Virus record (IMG/VR): IMGVR_UViG_3300037421_000099
Location: 1 to 54,124 of that record
Length of the DNA: 54,124 bases
Origin: a virus
Taxonomy: Duplodnaviria > Caudoviricetes
Direction: 5' to 3' (one strand)
Below the pieces are notes generated by a model. It saw only the letters and a list, made by a program, of their open reading frames with translations, did not search any database and was not told the DNA's origin. The position numbers and the translations under genes were made by a program. Below, piece after piece: positions 1 to 5,029 of this stretch. The number at the start of each line of letters is the position of its first letter. Position 1 is the stretch's first letter.

Positions 1-485
1 CGTTCGTACCCGCCGCTCGCCACCGATGACGTGGGGTCTTCGAACTTCTTCACGCGCGCGTGCGCGACGACGACAATCGCGATCCCCCTGAACCAGATCC
101 TCTCGAGCTGCGAGATGACCTTGCGCCACTCGACCGTGACCGCATCGTCGCCCTTGCCGTATCCGCCCTTGTGGTCGGTAACCGTTCCTCCCTTGAAGAG
201 GAACTCGTGGCTCATCGCTTCGATGTCAGTAATTGAGTCTAGGACGAGCGTCTTGCACGCTGCCGTCCCGTTCTCGACCGCTAGAAGCCACTCCTGCATG
301 TCCCCCCAGTCCGCGATGTCCACCCGCTGCACGTCGTAGTTGTGGCTCCCCCGATTCGCATCGAGGAACAACGGCTCGGGAGCGCCAGCGGCGTATCCGG
401 TTTTCCCGATGCCGTCGAACCCGTAGATGAGAACCCTAGGGGGCCGCTTGATCGTCCCCTTCCGTATGCGTTTCAGATCCACCAT
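1..485 (-). CDS. Sak4-like / AAA_24 phage ATPase (single-strand annealing), 3' end runs off window
   Basis: Hand translation MVDLKRIRKGTIKRPPRVLIYGFDGIGKT (Walker A) ... TLVLDSIT (Walker B) ... GYGKG ... VVVAH; GGAGG RBS; absent from ORF track because truncated. Confidence 0.85.
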   Translation of the reverse strand, partial: MVDLKRIRKGTIKRPPRVLIYGFDGIGKTGYAAGAPEPLFLDANRGSHNYDVQRVDIADWGDMQEWLLAVENGTAACKTLVLDSITDIEAMSHEFLFKGGTVTDHKGGYGKGDDAVTVEWRKVISQLERIWFRGIAIVVVAHARVKKFEDPTSSVASGGYE

Positions 486-1509
486 CACTCACCTCCGTGG
501 TCGCAACAGGAATCGAACCCGCTGCAGAAGCACCAGCCGACCCGTCATCTTCGATCATCGCATCCGTCTTCCCGCCCAGCACGAACGTCCGCGAAGCAGC
601 CCCGGTGTCTGGATTCACCAAGGAGATCGACCACTCCTTCTCCACCGAGATGACCCCCGAGGGCTTACCCCAGTACGTATGATATCCGATCATCATCGCC
701 CGTTCACGCGCGTTGTCGTAGGGGTCCTCGTTATCCAGCTTCAGAAGCGCCCCTTGGATGTCCCCTCCCGACTTCCACCAGTGCTCCAGCCCCCGGTGAA
801 GCGAGCTTCCCATCCGTAGCGGCTCGGGCTTGGGCCCCGTCGGCTCGACCAGCATTTCGTACCGAAAGAAGAAGCGCCTGGCACACGCTCTGTAGCATCG
901 AATCGAGGATTGCGTAAGGACGTCTTCGCCCTGCGCGTCGAGCTCTTCGTGCCTCTTGGTGCGCACGCGAAAAAGCATTGGATCGTCGATCGTGGTCGCA
1001 CCCGTGCACACCGAGAAGTAGTCGCACGTCCGCCCGTACTGCATGCACTGGTCGGGGTTGCGCGGCCAGACCTTGAGGCGTCGCGAGTCGCGGATGAGGC
1101 CCGCGGTCTGCCAGACGTCGAGCGCGTTGTCCACGCGATCCGTCTCGAGCCGTACGACCACTTCCCGACGGTAGTAGTAATCCGGCTTCTCGCCGATCGC
1201 CGCGATGAGCCGCTGAAAGAACTCTTCCGGCGTCTCGTCGACCTCGCGCTGGTTGGCGTACAGGCGCGGGATAGGTTCCTTCTTGGTGGGCTTGGTGTAC
1301 GTGCGCTTCTCGAGAGGCGTCGCCTGCAGCGGCTGCAACATAGGTTTGCGCAGCACATTGAAGAGCACCCCCACCGCGTCGTAGCCGAGTGAGATTGCGC
1401 CCTCGTTGTACATGCTGACTTGTGGATCGATGATCAGGCGCTTCCAATAAGGAGAGCCGACGGAAATGTCTTCGCCCGTGGACTTGTTCTCGACGACGAG
1501 GGTTCTCAT
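436..1509 (-). CDS. Cas4-like PD-(D/E)XK exonuclease, circularly permuted
   Basis: VVENKS, QVSMY, PRNPDQC..C..C, LTQSSIRCYRAC, GSSLH, VEKEW and GKTD motifs all present, but in permuted order; adjacent to Sak4-like ATPase. Confidence 0.85.
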   Translation of the reverse strand: MRTLVVENKSTGEDISVGSPYWKRLIIDPQVSMYNEGAISLGYDAVGVLFNVLRKPMLQPLQATPLEKRTYTKPTKKEPIPRLYANQREVDETPEEFFQRLIAAIGEKPDYYYRREVVVRLETDRVDNALDVWQTAGLIRDSRRLKVWPRNPDQCMQYGRTCDYFSVCTGATTIDDPMLFRVRTKRHEELDAQGEDVLTQSSIRCYRACARRFFFRYEMLVEPTGPKPEPLRMGSSLHRGLEHWWKSGGDIQGALLKLDNEDPYDNARERAMMIGYHTYWGKPSGVISVEKEWSISLVNPDTGAASRTFVLGGKTDAMIEDDGSAGASAAGSIPVATTEVSDGGSETHTEGDDQAAP

Positions 1510-1934
1510 CGGGATGTAGCTCGATCATTCATTAGTCGAACTCCAATTTTTTTGAGACCATAAATCGTTCCGCGCTCATACTGTAAAGCAGTACGTTTGG
1601 AGCACCAAAATTTTCCCAAGAGGTGAATTGCTGGAATTTTCCCAGAACGTTTTATCCATTTTATCCACCGGCAACGAGCAGACGTATTTAGTCGACTATT
1701 TTTTACTATAGATAGATGAGCCTTCAATCTTTGATCTAAATCTAACGAGGTGCATCCTATATATTTTACATAGCCGCTAATAGGACACGTCAATGCGTAT
1801 ATACGCCATTCCGTAAGACATTCTACAGAACCGTTACACCCTTCAGTAGAGCGACAACCCATGAACGATGCCCACGGCGAACCTCGATCAAGCTGTTTGC
1901 GCCCACATCTTTTACATCTATAAAGCGTTTTCAT
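1506..1934 (-). CDS. GIY-YIG endonuclease with N-terminal Cys motif
   Basis: IYAL...YIGCT...R..H and a later E; markedly AT-rich relative to flanks. Confidence 0.8.
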   Translation of the reverse strand: MKTLYRCKRCGRKQLDRGSPWASFMGCRSTEGCNGSVECLTEWRIYALTCPISGYVKYIGCTSLDLDQRLKAHLSIVKNSRLNTSARCRWIKWIKRSGKIPAIHLLGKFWCSKRTALQYERGTIYGLKKIGVRLMNDRATSR

Positions 1935-1947
1935 TCGCCCTACATGA

Positions 1948-2577
1948 TCAGTAATTGGGCCACGCCCACATCGAATCCCAGGGAACCTCGTTTTGCTCGT
2001 ACCAAACGGTTTTCTCTTGCTCCGTTGCGAAACGTGGAACAGGTTTGTCCTTGGGCCACTTTCGCTTCAAGGTGAACTTGTCGGATTCAGCCAGAGATTC
2101 CCATCCACTCCCGTAACGCGAAACTGGAAAATAGAAACCGACCCTACATTCTTTGCCGACTGCGTAGGACCATCCGTATACGTCAGCAATCAGTTTCCTA
2201 AGCAGCTCTCCAGGCTTCTCGCCTAGAACCTGATCTCCACGCAAATTCGGCTGCAGCGGGCCACCGCCGGTCCCGACCGGGATCACCGCAATCGAAACGC
2301 TTTCTGGCTTCCTACCAACCGAAGGGAGCCAGGCCAAGATGGCCTCCCAGAGTAAGCCGAGCTCTTTTGGCCAGCTGTCTCTCATTCTCTTTTCTTCTTC
2401 GTTCATGACCGGCTTCCTCAGCTCTAAAGCCAGTTCACGGGCGCAACGCTCAAGCATGATCAGTTCTGGTCTAGTAGTGACCTCTACACCAGGATCCTCA
2501 TCCAAGAATACGCCCCGACACCACTTCAAAAGAAGCTCTCGAAGCCTAGCCCGAAGAACTCTCTCAGACTGCTCCAT
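1948..2577 (-). CDS. hypothetical protein
   Basis: 209 aa ORF in operon orientation. Confidence 0.6.
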   Translation of the reverse strand: MEQSERVLRARLRELLLKWCRGVFLDEDPGVEVTTRPELIMLERCARELALELRKPVMNEEEKRMRDSWPKELGLLWEAILAWLPSVGRKPESVSIAVIPVGTGGGPLQPNLRGDQVLGEKPGELLRKLIADVYGWSYAVGKECRVGFYFPVSRYGSGWESLAESDKFTLKRKWPKDKPVPRFATEQEKTVWYEQNEVPWDSMWAWPNY

Positions 2578-2770: not shown

Positions 2771-3625
2771 CTATCCGATGAGCGACACGAGCGGCTTCTC
2801 GTCGCCGAGAACCCAGTAGAGAGCCGCCTCGATTGCGGCGCGATGATTCTCCTTGATCGCCTCAGCCCCTTGAACCTCCTCGAGCTTCGCCTGCACCTCC
2901 TTCTTGCCGCGCATCCCATCGGTGAGCCCGAGCGCTTCGCGATTCTCGGCGCGAGCCTTGCGAGCCGCCGCGCGCGGCTTCTTCTCTCGGGTGTGGTCTC
3001 CGGGGGGAGGTAGGTCGGCCAGGCGCTTCTTGGCCTCGCCAGCGTCCAGCTTAGCGAGCTTGTAGCCGTCGCTCGCTGCGATCGTGCCGTTCTCGACGGC
3101 CTTTTTCACCTCCTTTGGAGCGTCGAGCAGGCGGACCATGTTCTTGATGGTCGTCGTCGAGACGCCCATCATGATGGCCGCCTCCTCTTCGGAGCGCCCG
3201 AGGTCCAGGAACCTGGCGACCTTTTGCGCCTTCTGAAGCGGTGTCTCGGCTCGGCGGTGAACGTTCTCGCTGACCATCACGCCCATCAGCACATGGGGCT
3301 CGCCCCGGCGAACGACCGCTGGCACCCAGATCGGCTCTTCGCCTTTCTTCTTCAGGCGCTTGTTCGCCTCGCGCGTCGCCAGGACTCGACCTCGGCCCGC
3401 AACAACCTCGGTCTTCCCGGTCTCGGGGTTCTTTCGGACGACGATCGGCTCGATGACGCCGTAGGCCATGATGTTGAGCACCATCGACTCTTCGGGCGCA
3501 TCGAAGATGCGCTCGTCGAAGATGGCGCTGCCCTTGTCGTCGACCAGGACCAGATCCGCCGGGTCGAAGAGGAGCGTTGCGCCTCTACCTTTCGCGTTGT
3601 GTGCGTCCTTGGAGCTCTTAGCCAT
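2771..3625 (-). CDS. parB: ParB/Srx-like N-terminal domain protein
   Basis: GVIEPIVVR...VVAGRGR...SENVHR, followed by HTH (EEAAIMMGVSTTTIKN). Confidence 0.85.
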   Translation of the reverse strand: MAKSSKDAHNAKGRGATLLFDPADLVLVDDKGSAIFDERIFDAPEESMVLNIMAYGVIEPIVVRKNPETGKTEVVAGRGRVLATREANKRLKKKGEEPIWVPAVVRRGEPHVLMGVMVSENVHRRAETPLQKAQKVARFLDLGRSEEEAAIMMGVSTTTIKNMVRLLDAPKEVKKAVENGTIAASDGYKLAKLDAGEAKKRLADLPPPGDHTREKKPRAAARKARAENREALGLTDGMRGKKEVQAKLEEVQGAEAIKENHRAAIEAALYWVLGDEKPLVSLIG

Positions 3626-4052
3626 GGCCGTTCCTTTCCTCTTTCTGCGCTTCGCGCGCTCTTCTCAGCCGCCCTGTCACTGCACTCATCGAACATCCTA
3701 GGCGCTGCGCGATCGCGTAGATCGGCAGGCCCTCCTTCTGCTGGAGGCGAAGCGCTTCCATCGCTTCGGGGCTCGCCTTGGCGAGACTCTTGGGCTTGTA
3801 GACCCTGACGGTGGGTTTGGGCGCCGGGTCAGGGGATGGGAGGTAGAGGCGCTCGGGCGTGCCGTTCAGCCGCGAGCCACGAAGACCGAACCGGAGCACG
3901 CGTAGAGCGAGCTTCACTTGCCGGCCGCGATCGGTCCTGCCGTGCGCGAAACCGTTTTCGATCCGATCGATCGTCACGTTCATCCGGCCGTCGGAGCCGT
4001 AGCGGTTCATCACGACGACCGACCAGCATTGGCCGACTTCGACGTGTCTCAC
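3618..4052 (-). CDS. HTH DNA-binding protein (sigma region-4-like C-terminus)
   Basis: GTG start overlaps the upstream stop; EGLPIYAIAQRLGCSMSAVTGRLRRA. Confidence 0.7.
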   Translation of the reverse strand: MRHVEVGQCWSVVVMNRYGSDGRMNVTIDRIENGFAHGRTDRGRQVKLALRVLRFGLRGSRLNGTPERLYLPSPDPAPKPTVRVYKPKSLAKASPEAMEALRLQQKEGLPIYAIAQRLGCSMSAVTGRLRRAREAQKEERNGHG

Positions 4053-4732
4053 GGCTGGACTACCGCGTGAAACGGAAGCTCCGCCACGTCTTCGAGCGGC
4101 ATATTTCTGTACCAGTGCTTTCGCGCCGGCTCCCAGAAGAACCCGTGTTCCTTGACGACGTCCTTCATCTCGAAAGGTGCCATCGACACGACGCGCACCT
4201 TGGGTCGGAGCGCGAGCCGGAAGAGTTCCTGAAGGTCTCCTCCTAGCTCGGCGACACGCGTCAGCACGCGGCTCATCATGTCGACGTCGGTCATCGCGCG
4301 GTGCGCTGCGATGACACCGAGGCCCAGGCCGAGGGCTAGGTGGACGAGATGATCGCCACGGAGGCCGCGGGGCCACTTAAAGTCTGACTTGGTGCAGACC
4401 CACTTGGCGCCGTTCCAGAGCGGCGGCGTGAACTTCATGTCGAACTCAGCCCGATGCGCAACGATGCACTCAGCACCCATCGAGATCGTTCGCACCCGCC
4501 GCCACACGTCCGCCGGAGTCGGCGCACCCATGAGCATCGCGGCCGAGATCCCGTTCACCTTCTCCATGGGGTTGTCGGGTTTCTCCGCCGGATCCCACAT
4601 GAGAGACGAGAAGCTCACAATCGGTGTCGCCTGCTCGATGTCGTAGAGCTGCACGGCGACCTCGATGCAGCGGGCGCCCTGCGCGGGGTCCATTCCGGTC
4701 GTCTCGCAGTCGAGGAGGAGAACGTTTTTCAC
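4049..4732 (-). CDS. DEDDh 3'-5' exonuclease (DnaQ-like)
   Basis: LDCETTG, AHRAEFD, HRAMTD motifs. Confidence 0.9.
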   Translation of the reverse strand: MKNVLLLDCETTGMDPAQGARCIEVAVQLYDIEQATPIVSFSSLMWDPAEKPDNPMEKVNGISAAMLMGAPTPADVWRRVRTISMGAECIVAHRAEFDMKFTPPLWNGAKWVCTKSDFKWPRGLRGDHLVHLALGLGLGVIAAHRAMTDVDMMSRVLTRVAELGGDLQELFRLALRPKVRVVSMAPFEMKDVVKEHGFFWEPARKHWYRNMPLEDVAELPFHAVVQP

Positions 4733-5007
4733 GCTTGCCTCCAGTAGCCCTGCTCGATATCCGACGCGACGGTCCGGATCAGAACCGACGTCACATTATT
4801 GTCGTCACCGGCTCGCTCGCGGATGTACGTCGCGATCTGCTTCACCACCCGCGCCTCGGTGCCCTCGGTATCCGGCGTGAGCTCGCGGAGCATCCGATCG
4901 GCCATGTCGTCGTAGATACCCGGTACGATCGACTGCTCCCGAAAGCTCCTCAGCCACTTCGCTGCCGCCAGCACACCCTTCTCCCAGTCGCTCGGCCCCT
5001 GTCCCAT
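4729..5007 (-). CDS. hypothetical protein, first gene of leftward operon
   Basis: GGAGG RBS before ATG at 5007; stop overlaps next start. Confidence 0.65.
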   Translation of the reverse strand: MGQGPSDWEKGVLAAAKWLRSFREQSIVPGIYDDMADRMLRELTPDTEGTEARVVKQIATYIRERAGDDNNVTSVLIRTVASDIEQGYWRQA

Positions 5008-5029
5008 TCCGCAACCTCCACAATGGGCC

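Follow-up and report, generated by a model that had tools for sequence, protein, structure and literature searches.

The closest described relatives of the protein reported here are the Cas4-, AddB-, AdnA- and RecB-type nucleases of the PD-(D/E)XK superfamily, which carry a four-cysteine iron-sulfur (Fe-S) site. For the superfamily as a whole, the available part of a review (PMC3424549) describes a single circular permutation, that of Hef, whose C-terminus supplies the first core helix, and a domain swap in T7 endonuclease I. In the Pseudomonas phage Phi47, according to the accessible text of PMC13687109, an exonuclease with a Cas4 domain is co-purified with a Sak4-like annealase, and both take part in the repair of DNA after cleavage. 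In this study, we analysed a stretch of viral DNA of 54,124 nucleotides (Duplodnaviria; Caudoviricetes; IMG/VR record IMGVR_UViG_3300037421_000099; the whole stretch is called the window), a record classed as linear with a CheckV completeness of 67%. This soil phage encodes a nuclease, P0001, whose two halves stand in swapped order. The evidence supports that P0001 is a real and conserved natural circular permutant of a Cas4/AddB-like PD-(D/E)XK Fe-S nuclease. Very probably it is a functional enzyme of the Cas4/RecB/AddB type and the resecting partner of Sak4.

The open reading frame (ORF) of P0001 comprises 357 amino acids plus stop on the minus strand (436-1509, translated from 439-1509), the strand on which all parts described below lie. 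Its matches to PHROG 1218 and Pfam PDDEXK_1 name it a predicted Cas4/RecB-like PD-(D/E)XK Fe-S exonuclease in circularly permuted form. An in-frame TGA lies six codons 5' of the ATG with no start in between, so that the protein begins with MRTLVVENKST. The chain opens with the module that forms the C-terminal half of canonical relatives (C-module, residues 1-190, positions 940-1509). This module carries motif III, E7-N-K9 (1483-1491), on an N-terminal beta-strand (residues 2-11 in the model), the QxxxY motif Q30...Y34 (QVSMY, residues 30-34, 1408-1422) and a cluster of three putative Fe-S ligands, C155, C162 and C168 (CMQYGRTCDYFSVC at residues 155-168, 1006-1047). The linker HEELDAQGEDV (residues 187-197, 919-951) leads from the former C-terminus to the former N-terminus and into the N-module placed second (residues 191-325, 535-939). 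Here follow the fourth conserved cysteine, C209 (883-885), in LTQSSIRCYRAC at residues 198-209, the helix with GSSLH (residues 234-238, 796-810) and its invariant H238, the motif I glutamate E290 (640-642) in VEKEW, which starts at residue 289, and GKTD (residues 313-316, 562-573), whose motif II aspartate D316 lies on the last beta-strand (residues 305-321 in the model) next to the new C-terminus of the fold. A disordered C-terminal tail (residues 326-357, 439-534) closes the chain, with a predicted local distance difference test (pLDDT) score below 50 at residues 329-349; its coding DNA overlaps a hairpin, a Shine-Dalgarno sequence and the start of the Sak4 gene. All motifs named in an earlier, model-made first-pass annotation of this DNA were recovered at these places in the translation. 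Its remark that the Fe-S cysteines are gathered in one segment is borne out as well, C155, C162, C168 and C209 falling within 55 residues.

The swapped order becomes apparent when the two halves are scanned separately. PHROG 1218 'exonuclease' (364 positions) matches them in reverse: residues 20-169 align with profile positions 167-330 (E 1.8e-7) and residues 194-322 with positions 6-151 (E 3.9e-10). Pfam PDDEXK_1 (PF12705) finds on the whole protein only residues 198-273, aligned with positions 2-93 of 247 at 33.9 bits, above the curated cut-off of 22. The second half scanned alone gives PDDEXK_1 positions 2-97, and the first half scanned alone gives no match to this profile. As a control, the canonical relative P0088 is collinear with PDDEXK_1 from residue 18 to 326 (positions 2-246 of 247). 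By BLASTP, residues 163-348 of P0088 align with residues 5-190 of P0001 at 56% identity, and residues 17-155 with the second half of P0001 at 38% identity. The first-pass annotation had expected two profile matches in swapped order; this holds for PHROG 1218 and fails for PDDEXK_1, which recognises the second half only. The collinear full-length profile match that it had named as contrary evidence was not found for P0001, in which the collinear motif order of the family profile is absent.

Conservation was assessed from a word-index protein search started with P0001, which returned 259 hits. Among the 120 that were listed, with the query counted, the chain order was assigned as that of P0001 (C-N) in 96, as canonical in 21 and as a third order, N2-C-N1, in three. 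The constraint alignment comprises 81 of the 96 C-N proteins at 43-69% identity; the other 15 were omitted because they lack the first ~26 residues as called or carry long inserts or extensions. In all 81, residues E7, K9, D28, Q30, Y34, C155, C162, C168, C209, H238, E290 and D316 are invariant. Their equivalents show little or no variation across 100 canonical relatives, in which the counterparts of the four cysteines (C29, C313, C320 and C326) do not vary at all. P0001 holds both the catalytic motif set of the nuclease family (E, D, ExK, QxxxY) and its four-cysteine set, and it is the only copy of this family in the 54-kb record. A scan of viral contigs yielded 26 loci, several of which represent one phage in different samples; 24, in contigs as long as 124 kb, have the order C-N1-N2 in a single frame, another has the canonical order, and the last is truncated where its contig ends. 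Homologs in the same order, which the first-pass annotation had proposed to look for, are therefore plentiful, in 96 of the 120 listed proteins and 24 of the 26 viral loci. The permuted order is not a one-off and is kept across a large phage clade.

Concerning the position of the cut, the hairpin segment of canonical relatives reads G-K-x-D, strand, turn, strand, E-H-K-T. Among C-N proteins with a recognisable motif, five to eight residues precede the glutamate of ExK in 84 of 102, and five to eight follow the motif II aspartate (G[KR]xD) in 62 of 106. These distances place the new termini of most C-N proteins in the turn of the catalytic hairpin, and for P0001 the evidence supports termini in the turn that would link the D316 strand (motif II) to the E7-x-K9 strand (motif III). 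At the DNA level, a Met or Val start lies a few codons before the ExK glutamate in all 22 C-N loci, and in nine of the 22 an in-frame stop is found within 20 codons 5' of it. Profile halves, invariant residues, model strands and terminus distances agree with the circular permutation between the two catalytic motifs that the first-pass annotation had put forward.

Arranged in this way, the chain starts with the motif III strand, continues through QxxxY, the three cysteines and a linker of about ten residues, and then runs through the old N-terminal part (C209, H238, E290) to end just past the motif II strand. The first and last strands would pair within one chain, re-forming the catalytic hairpin, which canonical relatives have as one continuous stretch, and the Fe-S site would close a short local loop rather than stapling two chain ends. 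The linker, also in other clades, is made up of the canonical C-terminal tail '...HEEL' and the N-terminal head '(R)LPLLTxSS', exactly as expected from a head-to-tail fusion of two copies. The most likely origin would be a head-to-tail duplication in which the copies were fused in frame and the outer halves later lost. What the data show is the swapped order with its conservation, the conserved residues, the synteny and a confident model of a single domain; the binding of an Fe-S cluster, the activity as a nuclease, the pairing of the terminal strands in one chain, the clustering of the four cysteines and the duplication route are inferred.

The AlphaFold2 model of P0001, built from the alignment of 81 homologs, is a single compact domain (pLDDT 91.7, predicted template modelling score (pTM) 0.84) with strands at residues 2-11, 286-298 and 305-321 and with disorder only in the tail at 329-349. 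Residues 1-10 are packed in the monomer at pLDDT 96. The model of canonical P0088 (pLDDT 94.5, pTM 0.90) contains the same secondary-structure elements in rotated order. With Foldseek, the P0088 model gives 16 hits in the PDB at E ≤ 1e-3, among them AdnA (9np6_A, E 3.9e-7) and AddB (4cej_B, E 8e-7) and also RecE (3h4r), ACE1 (9iab_B, TMt 0.63), Cas4 SSO0001 (4ic1_D) and Exo5.

Several findings weigh against reading P0001 as a functional permutant of this kind. The permuted model itself gives no Foldseek hit in the PDB at E ≤ 1e-3; a sequential aligner is expected to miss the fold of a permutant. VIA-align likewise returned no significant match, all alignments being weak (Z ≤ 4.2) and split in two halves, as would be expected: residues 141-336 resemble the leading, N-terminal parts of the nuclease domains of AdnA, AddB and ACE1, and residues 1-174 the trailing parts of Cas4 (7mi4_A 94-210; 8d3l_I 102-212), 3k93 and RecE. 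A sequence search of solved structures, made with P0001 and with a profile, gave no meaningful match. The probable fold assignment is thus drawn from the ~50% identity to canonical relatives and from the order of secondary-structure elements in the models. No strong Shine-Dalgarno sequence precedes the ATG at 1509. ExK is missing as called from 11 of 113 C-N proteins; for the type represented by P0069, the DNA of viral locus L001 encodes the ExK strand 5' of the called start, so that the proteins without ExK look like miscalled starts. As to the proposed duplication, a word-index search of proteins of 626-2000 amino acids found no tandem intermediate at E ≤ 1e-3, which is weak evidence. Relaxed tblastn (E ≤ 5) of the own product of 16 permuted genes (the window, 11 C-N loci and four loci of the N2-C-N1 type) against their 1.5-kb flanks revealed no duplication remnant, giving only matches at E ≥ 0.087. 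A corresponding search among proteins of 30-195 amino acids found no split forms at E ≤ 1e-3, again weak evidence. Three long proteins, P0167, P0183 and P0256, were considered as tandem copies and ruled out; each has the canonical order, lengthened by an unrelated N-terminal extension or an intein.

The same arrangement of strands could also arise between chains. In a strand-swapped oligomer, the ExK strand of one chain would complete the sheet and active site of a second one, giving a composite site as in T7 endonuclease I. For that enzyme, a member of the superfamily, the available part of the review (PMC3424549) records domain swapping of core elements, and termini placed in a hairpin could favour a swap. 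A two-copy prediction of P0001 reached the mark of the tool (median score 0.51, the best of three controls 0.02). Among proteins solved as pairs of one chain, 20 of 30 reach this mark, compared with one of 23 among those solved as single chains. At least 85% of contacts are shared between runs, and the pLDDT of the partner is at least 85. Yet the confident part of the predicted interface, which is symmetric, consists of residues 20-29, 127-138, 147-169 and 204-208, that is the face of the cysteine cluster. The terminal strands (1-11, 286-321) are not among the confident interface residues, and residues outside these ranges are uncertain. As modelled, the homodimer gives no support to a strand-swapped active site, and the monomer model, with residues 1-10 packed at pLDDT 96 and a pTM of 0.84, completes the domain within one chain. 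We regard the swapped oligomer as improbable. Poorer still are the prospects of a decaying remnant, in which the 3' and 5' halves of tandem copies would have been fused in frame by chance and have lost activity. A tandem junction would give just such a linker of C-tail joined to N-head, but a remnant would hardly keep its catalytic and cysteine residues invariant in 81 homologs of 43-69% identity. The 26 viral loci include 24 with this order, P0001 is the only nuclease of the family in its record, and the model is a single confident domain; we therefore consider this origin very unlikely.

A last alternative is that the swapped order results from misassembly, or from a mobile insertion that cut or rearranged a canonical gene. 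Directly upstream of the nuclease lies an ORF of 142 amino acids resembling a GIY-YIG homing endonuclease (1506-1934, minus strand; Pfam E 9e-5), the end of which shares an ATGA overlap with the nuclease start, and the GC content falls to 0.38-0.53 over 1500-2600 from ~0.62 around. Three soil-metagenome runs, each from a different study, supplied Logan contigs that were mapped on positions 300-2700; the best-matching of these runs may be the source sample. Separate soil contigs bridge 787-943, 914-1240 and 1391-1558 without loose ends, and one contig of 1377 nucleotides, from a ~93%-identical variant, covers 300-1558. The misassembly near 900-940 or 1506 that the first-pass annotation had allowed for was not seen, both junctions being bridged by contigs of independent runs. 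In all three runs, contigs join position 1556 to 2006 with a 2-nt overlap and skip 449 bp (1557-2005), so that alleles with and without the GIY-YIG insertion coexist. The allele lacking it has the same nuclease ORF with the same start; the insertion therefore did not create the split. The GIY-YIG gene is absent from all 26 related viral loci, although 24 of these are permuted. We give an artefact or a mobile origin of the swapped order next to no probability, and take the GIY-YIG gene for what it is, a separate polymorphic insertion distinct from the permutation. The permuted nuclease, folded within one chain, remains the preferred reading.

The last 17 codons of the GIY-YIG ORF come from resident sequence. 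Upstream of it lies a further ORF of 209 amino acids, ORF209 (1948-2577, minus strand; GC ~0.5-0.58), which has no Pfam or PHROG match and, like the GIY-YIG gene, is present in none of the 26 related viral loci. Its last 19 codons are inside the 449-bp mobile segment, and in the allele without the insertion a different end is expected.

An exhaustive search of 1.84 billion representatives of 50% clusters retrieved 2829 proteins at E ≤ 1e-3, 675 of them at E ≤ 1e-30. Among the best 150 of the 2829, the canonical order (N1-N2-C) is found in 106, C-N1-N2 in 21 and N2-C-N1 in nine, and 14 are partial; at the level of 50% clusters, the canonical order is thus the majority. The pooled set of 265 proteins comprises 126 canonical, 113 C-N1-N2, 12 N2-C-N1 and 14 partial sequences. 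Additional queries with P0184 against viral contigs and with P0085 against the genome collection found no relative. By sequence, Cys-rich inserts resembling zinc ribbons (CxxC...CxxC) were noticed in the new linker of P0006 and in the C-module of P0118.

The third order is real. N2-C-N1 is encoded in one frame inside the viral contigs L028 (32 kb), L032 (39 kb) and L027, and also by gp59 'exonuclease' of the cultured Tunturiibacter phage Tunturi_1 (L057, PP887698.1, 2761-3795), with DHK as motif III. In trees, N2-C-N1 proteins sit singly beside canonical sisters. Identities over the two aligned pieces are 67% and 65% for P0184 and canonical P0097, 62% and 65% for P0157 and P0090, 62% and 64% for P0232 and P0234, and 59% and 56% for P0185 and P0186. 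For eight of the 12 N2-C-N1 proteins, the best-scoring relative among the 265 is canonical and not N2-C-N1. Their cut points differ too: P0143, P0180 and P0184 end just past the 'WW' helix, the others keep one more C-terminal helix.

The number of label changes required for N2-C-N1 is ten in a FastTree phylogeny of 251 rows, ten in an IQ-TREE mixture-model tree of 94 rows, six of them forced by starred branches, and six in an IQ-TREE LG+G4 tree of 34 rows that included six such proteins. On this 34-row LG+G4 set, whose rows were chosen after the first tree was seen, the approximately unbiased (AU) test rejected a single clade of the six N2-C-N1 rows (log-likelihood difference 251.8, p 1.4e-39), and with it a single origin of this order. 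For the C-N order the trees need five to six changes, yet one clade is not rejected on the same set (log-likelihood difference 42.5, p-AU 0.176), and we do not claim several origins for it. P0001 belongs to the main C-N clade, which holds 90 of the 113 C-N rows with support 98.

To judge from these sequence comparisons, rearrangement in the Sak4-linked nuclease family has happened more than once. The family is probably a hotspot of recurrent permutation, with at least three orders at 45-67% identity and about six or more origins of N2-C-N1. The hotspot would most likely owe its existence to the Fe-S cluster: with the chain ends held together by it, fused duplicates would fold and could be trimmed either way. 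One might also think that cuts at or near the DNA coding for D/ExK were favoured because they remove the homing site of active-site inteins or endonucleases. For this idea speaks the canonical protein P0183 (712 amino acids), in which an intein (Pfam Intein_splicing and LAGLIDADG_3) follows directly on the motif III lysine (VEHK|C...THN|T), a few residues from the C-N cut point; we nevertheless hold it to be unlikely.

The partner gene, encoding a Sak4-like annealing ATPase (AAA_24, E 4.4e-24; PHROG 124, E 3.6e-26), lies at 3-488 on the minus strand and runs off the window. A Sak4 homolog is found downstream of the nuclease in all 26 viral loci, and Sak4/AAA_24 in 21 of 23 loci from bacterial genomes and metagenome-assembled genomes (MAGs), the two exceptions being contigs of 1.6-1.7 kb. 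These genome loci include Myxococcales (for instance the chromosome of Myxococcus sp. Y35), Planctomycetota, Binatia, Bryobacteraceae, Gemmatimonadales and others; most are canonical, and the Myxococcales MAG locus L034 is C-N. In Tunturi_1, gp59 is followed by gp57 (Sak4-like) and then by gp56 (SSB). Sak4 is co-oriented and just downstream in the canonical, C-N and N2-C-N1 forms alike. The statement of the first-pass annotation that phage Sak4 is usually paired with a nuclease of normal order agrees with the canonical majority given above, but misses that the C-N and N2-C-N1 forms are paired with it as well. P0001 would resect DNA ends as the exonuclease of a phage recombination and repair module with two components, the other being the annealing ATPase Sak4. 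Such cooperation is suggested by synteny and, by analogy, by the likeness to Gp61/Gp64 of Phi47. A gene for a DnaQ-like exonuclease, named by inspection of its sequence, is present in the window at 4049-4732 (minus strand), and homologs lie 5' of the nuclease in 18 of the 26 viral loci. The window further contains a ParB-like gene (2771-3625, minus strand; HTH_ParB, E 2.7e-10), homologs of which are found at varying places in related loci.

Ahead of the Sak4 start, the window contains a hairpin resembling the T-arm of a tRNA (503-525, minus strand), with a stem of 5-8 bp and a 7-nt loop TTCGAnT, situated 8-14 nt before a Shine-Dalgarno sequence and ATG. Similar hairpins occur in L001 (~5006-5028), L003, L004, L005, L007 (~2791), L034 (~6140), L035, L037 and L050; in some loci, they precede the gene after Sak4. 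For ten sequences, six pairs are predicted, four of them with compensatory changes. Rfam gave no match at E ≤ 1 on positions 300-2700 of the window, and ARAGORN found no tRNA gene in the window. The hairpin overlaps the coding end of the nuclease, which accounts for the conserved tail 'GS(I/T)PATG(T/A)EV' of many C-N proteins. In L001 and L002 (5047-6900, plus strand), the Sak4 homolog is one open frame with an interruption of ~360 residues after the P-loop (GVGK), which ends in THN and contains an 'LLGDG' block. To judge from the translation, this interruption resembles an intein with a LAGLIDADG endonuclease.

Natural circular permutants with living canonical relatives at >50% identity are rare, and in P0001 the chain is opened between the two catalytic strands of the PD-(D/E)XK active site, the key residues of which are strictly constrained. 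The matched canonical, C-N and N2-C-N1 sequences, with their two cut points in the last form, provide a test series for permutation by duplication. With this series it can be tested whether the Fe-S 'staple' between chain ends makes the fold permissive, and whether chain order alters nuclease polarity, oligomer state or coupling to Sak4. As Tunturi_1 and its host are cultured and the phage carries a permuted form, a system amenable to bench work is at hand. For annotation, the consequence is that such proteins may be taken for fragments, as profile tools recognise one half of them (Pfam positions 2-93 of 247) and Foldseek gave no hit for the model.

Nowhere in the literature searched did we come across a permuted Fe-S nuclease of the Cas4/RecB type, the sense of 'permutation' in some papers being unchecked, or the Tunturiibacter phage exonuclease. 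Papers on Cas4 judged by title and abstract dealt with permuted genomes or with other subjects. Compared with the phage modules of exonuclease and Sak4, such as Gp61/Gp64 of Phi47 as far as described in the accessible text of PMC13687109, the locus shares the nuclease gene beside a co-oriented Sak4/AAA_24 gene and differs in that P0001 is permuted. With T7 endonuclease I, as presented in the available part of the review (PMC3424549), P0001 has in common that core elements of the active site are separated in the chain; there, the elements come from two chains, whereas the monomer model of P0001 completes the domain in one. Hef/XPF, as covered in that same part, shows the fold of this superfamily in another naturally permuted form, and the N2-C-N1 relatives, which also move leading helices to the C-terminus, come closer to its pattern. 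P0001 differs from Hef/XPF in being cut between the D and ExK strands and not before the first core strand, and in belonging to the Fe-S Cas4/RecB branch, where canonical and permuted forms coexist at 50-67% identity. The Cas4/AddB/AdnA/RecB-type four-cysteine Fe-S nucleases (PF12705; 9np6_A, 4cej_B, 9iab_B, 4ic1_D) have the same motifs and the same four cysteines, and their structures match those modelled for canonical relatives with ~50% identity to P0001 at Foldseek E values of 4e-7 to 4e-4. Unlike these enzymes, P0001 is rotated, with ExK-QxxxY-CCC first, Cys-H-E-D last and its termini in the D/ExK hairpin.

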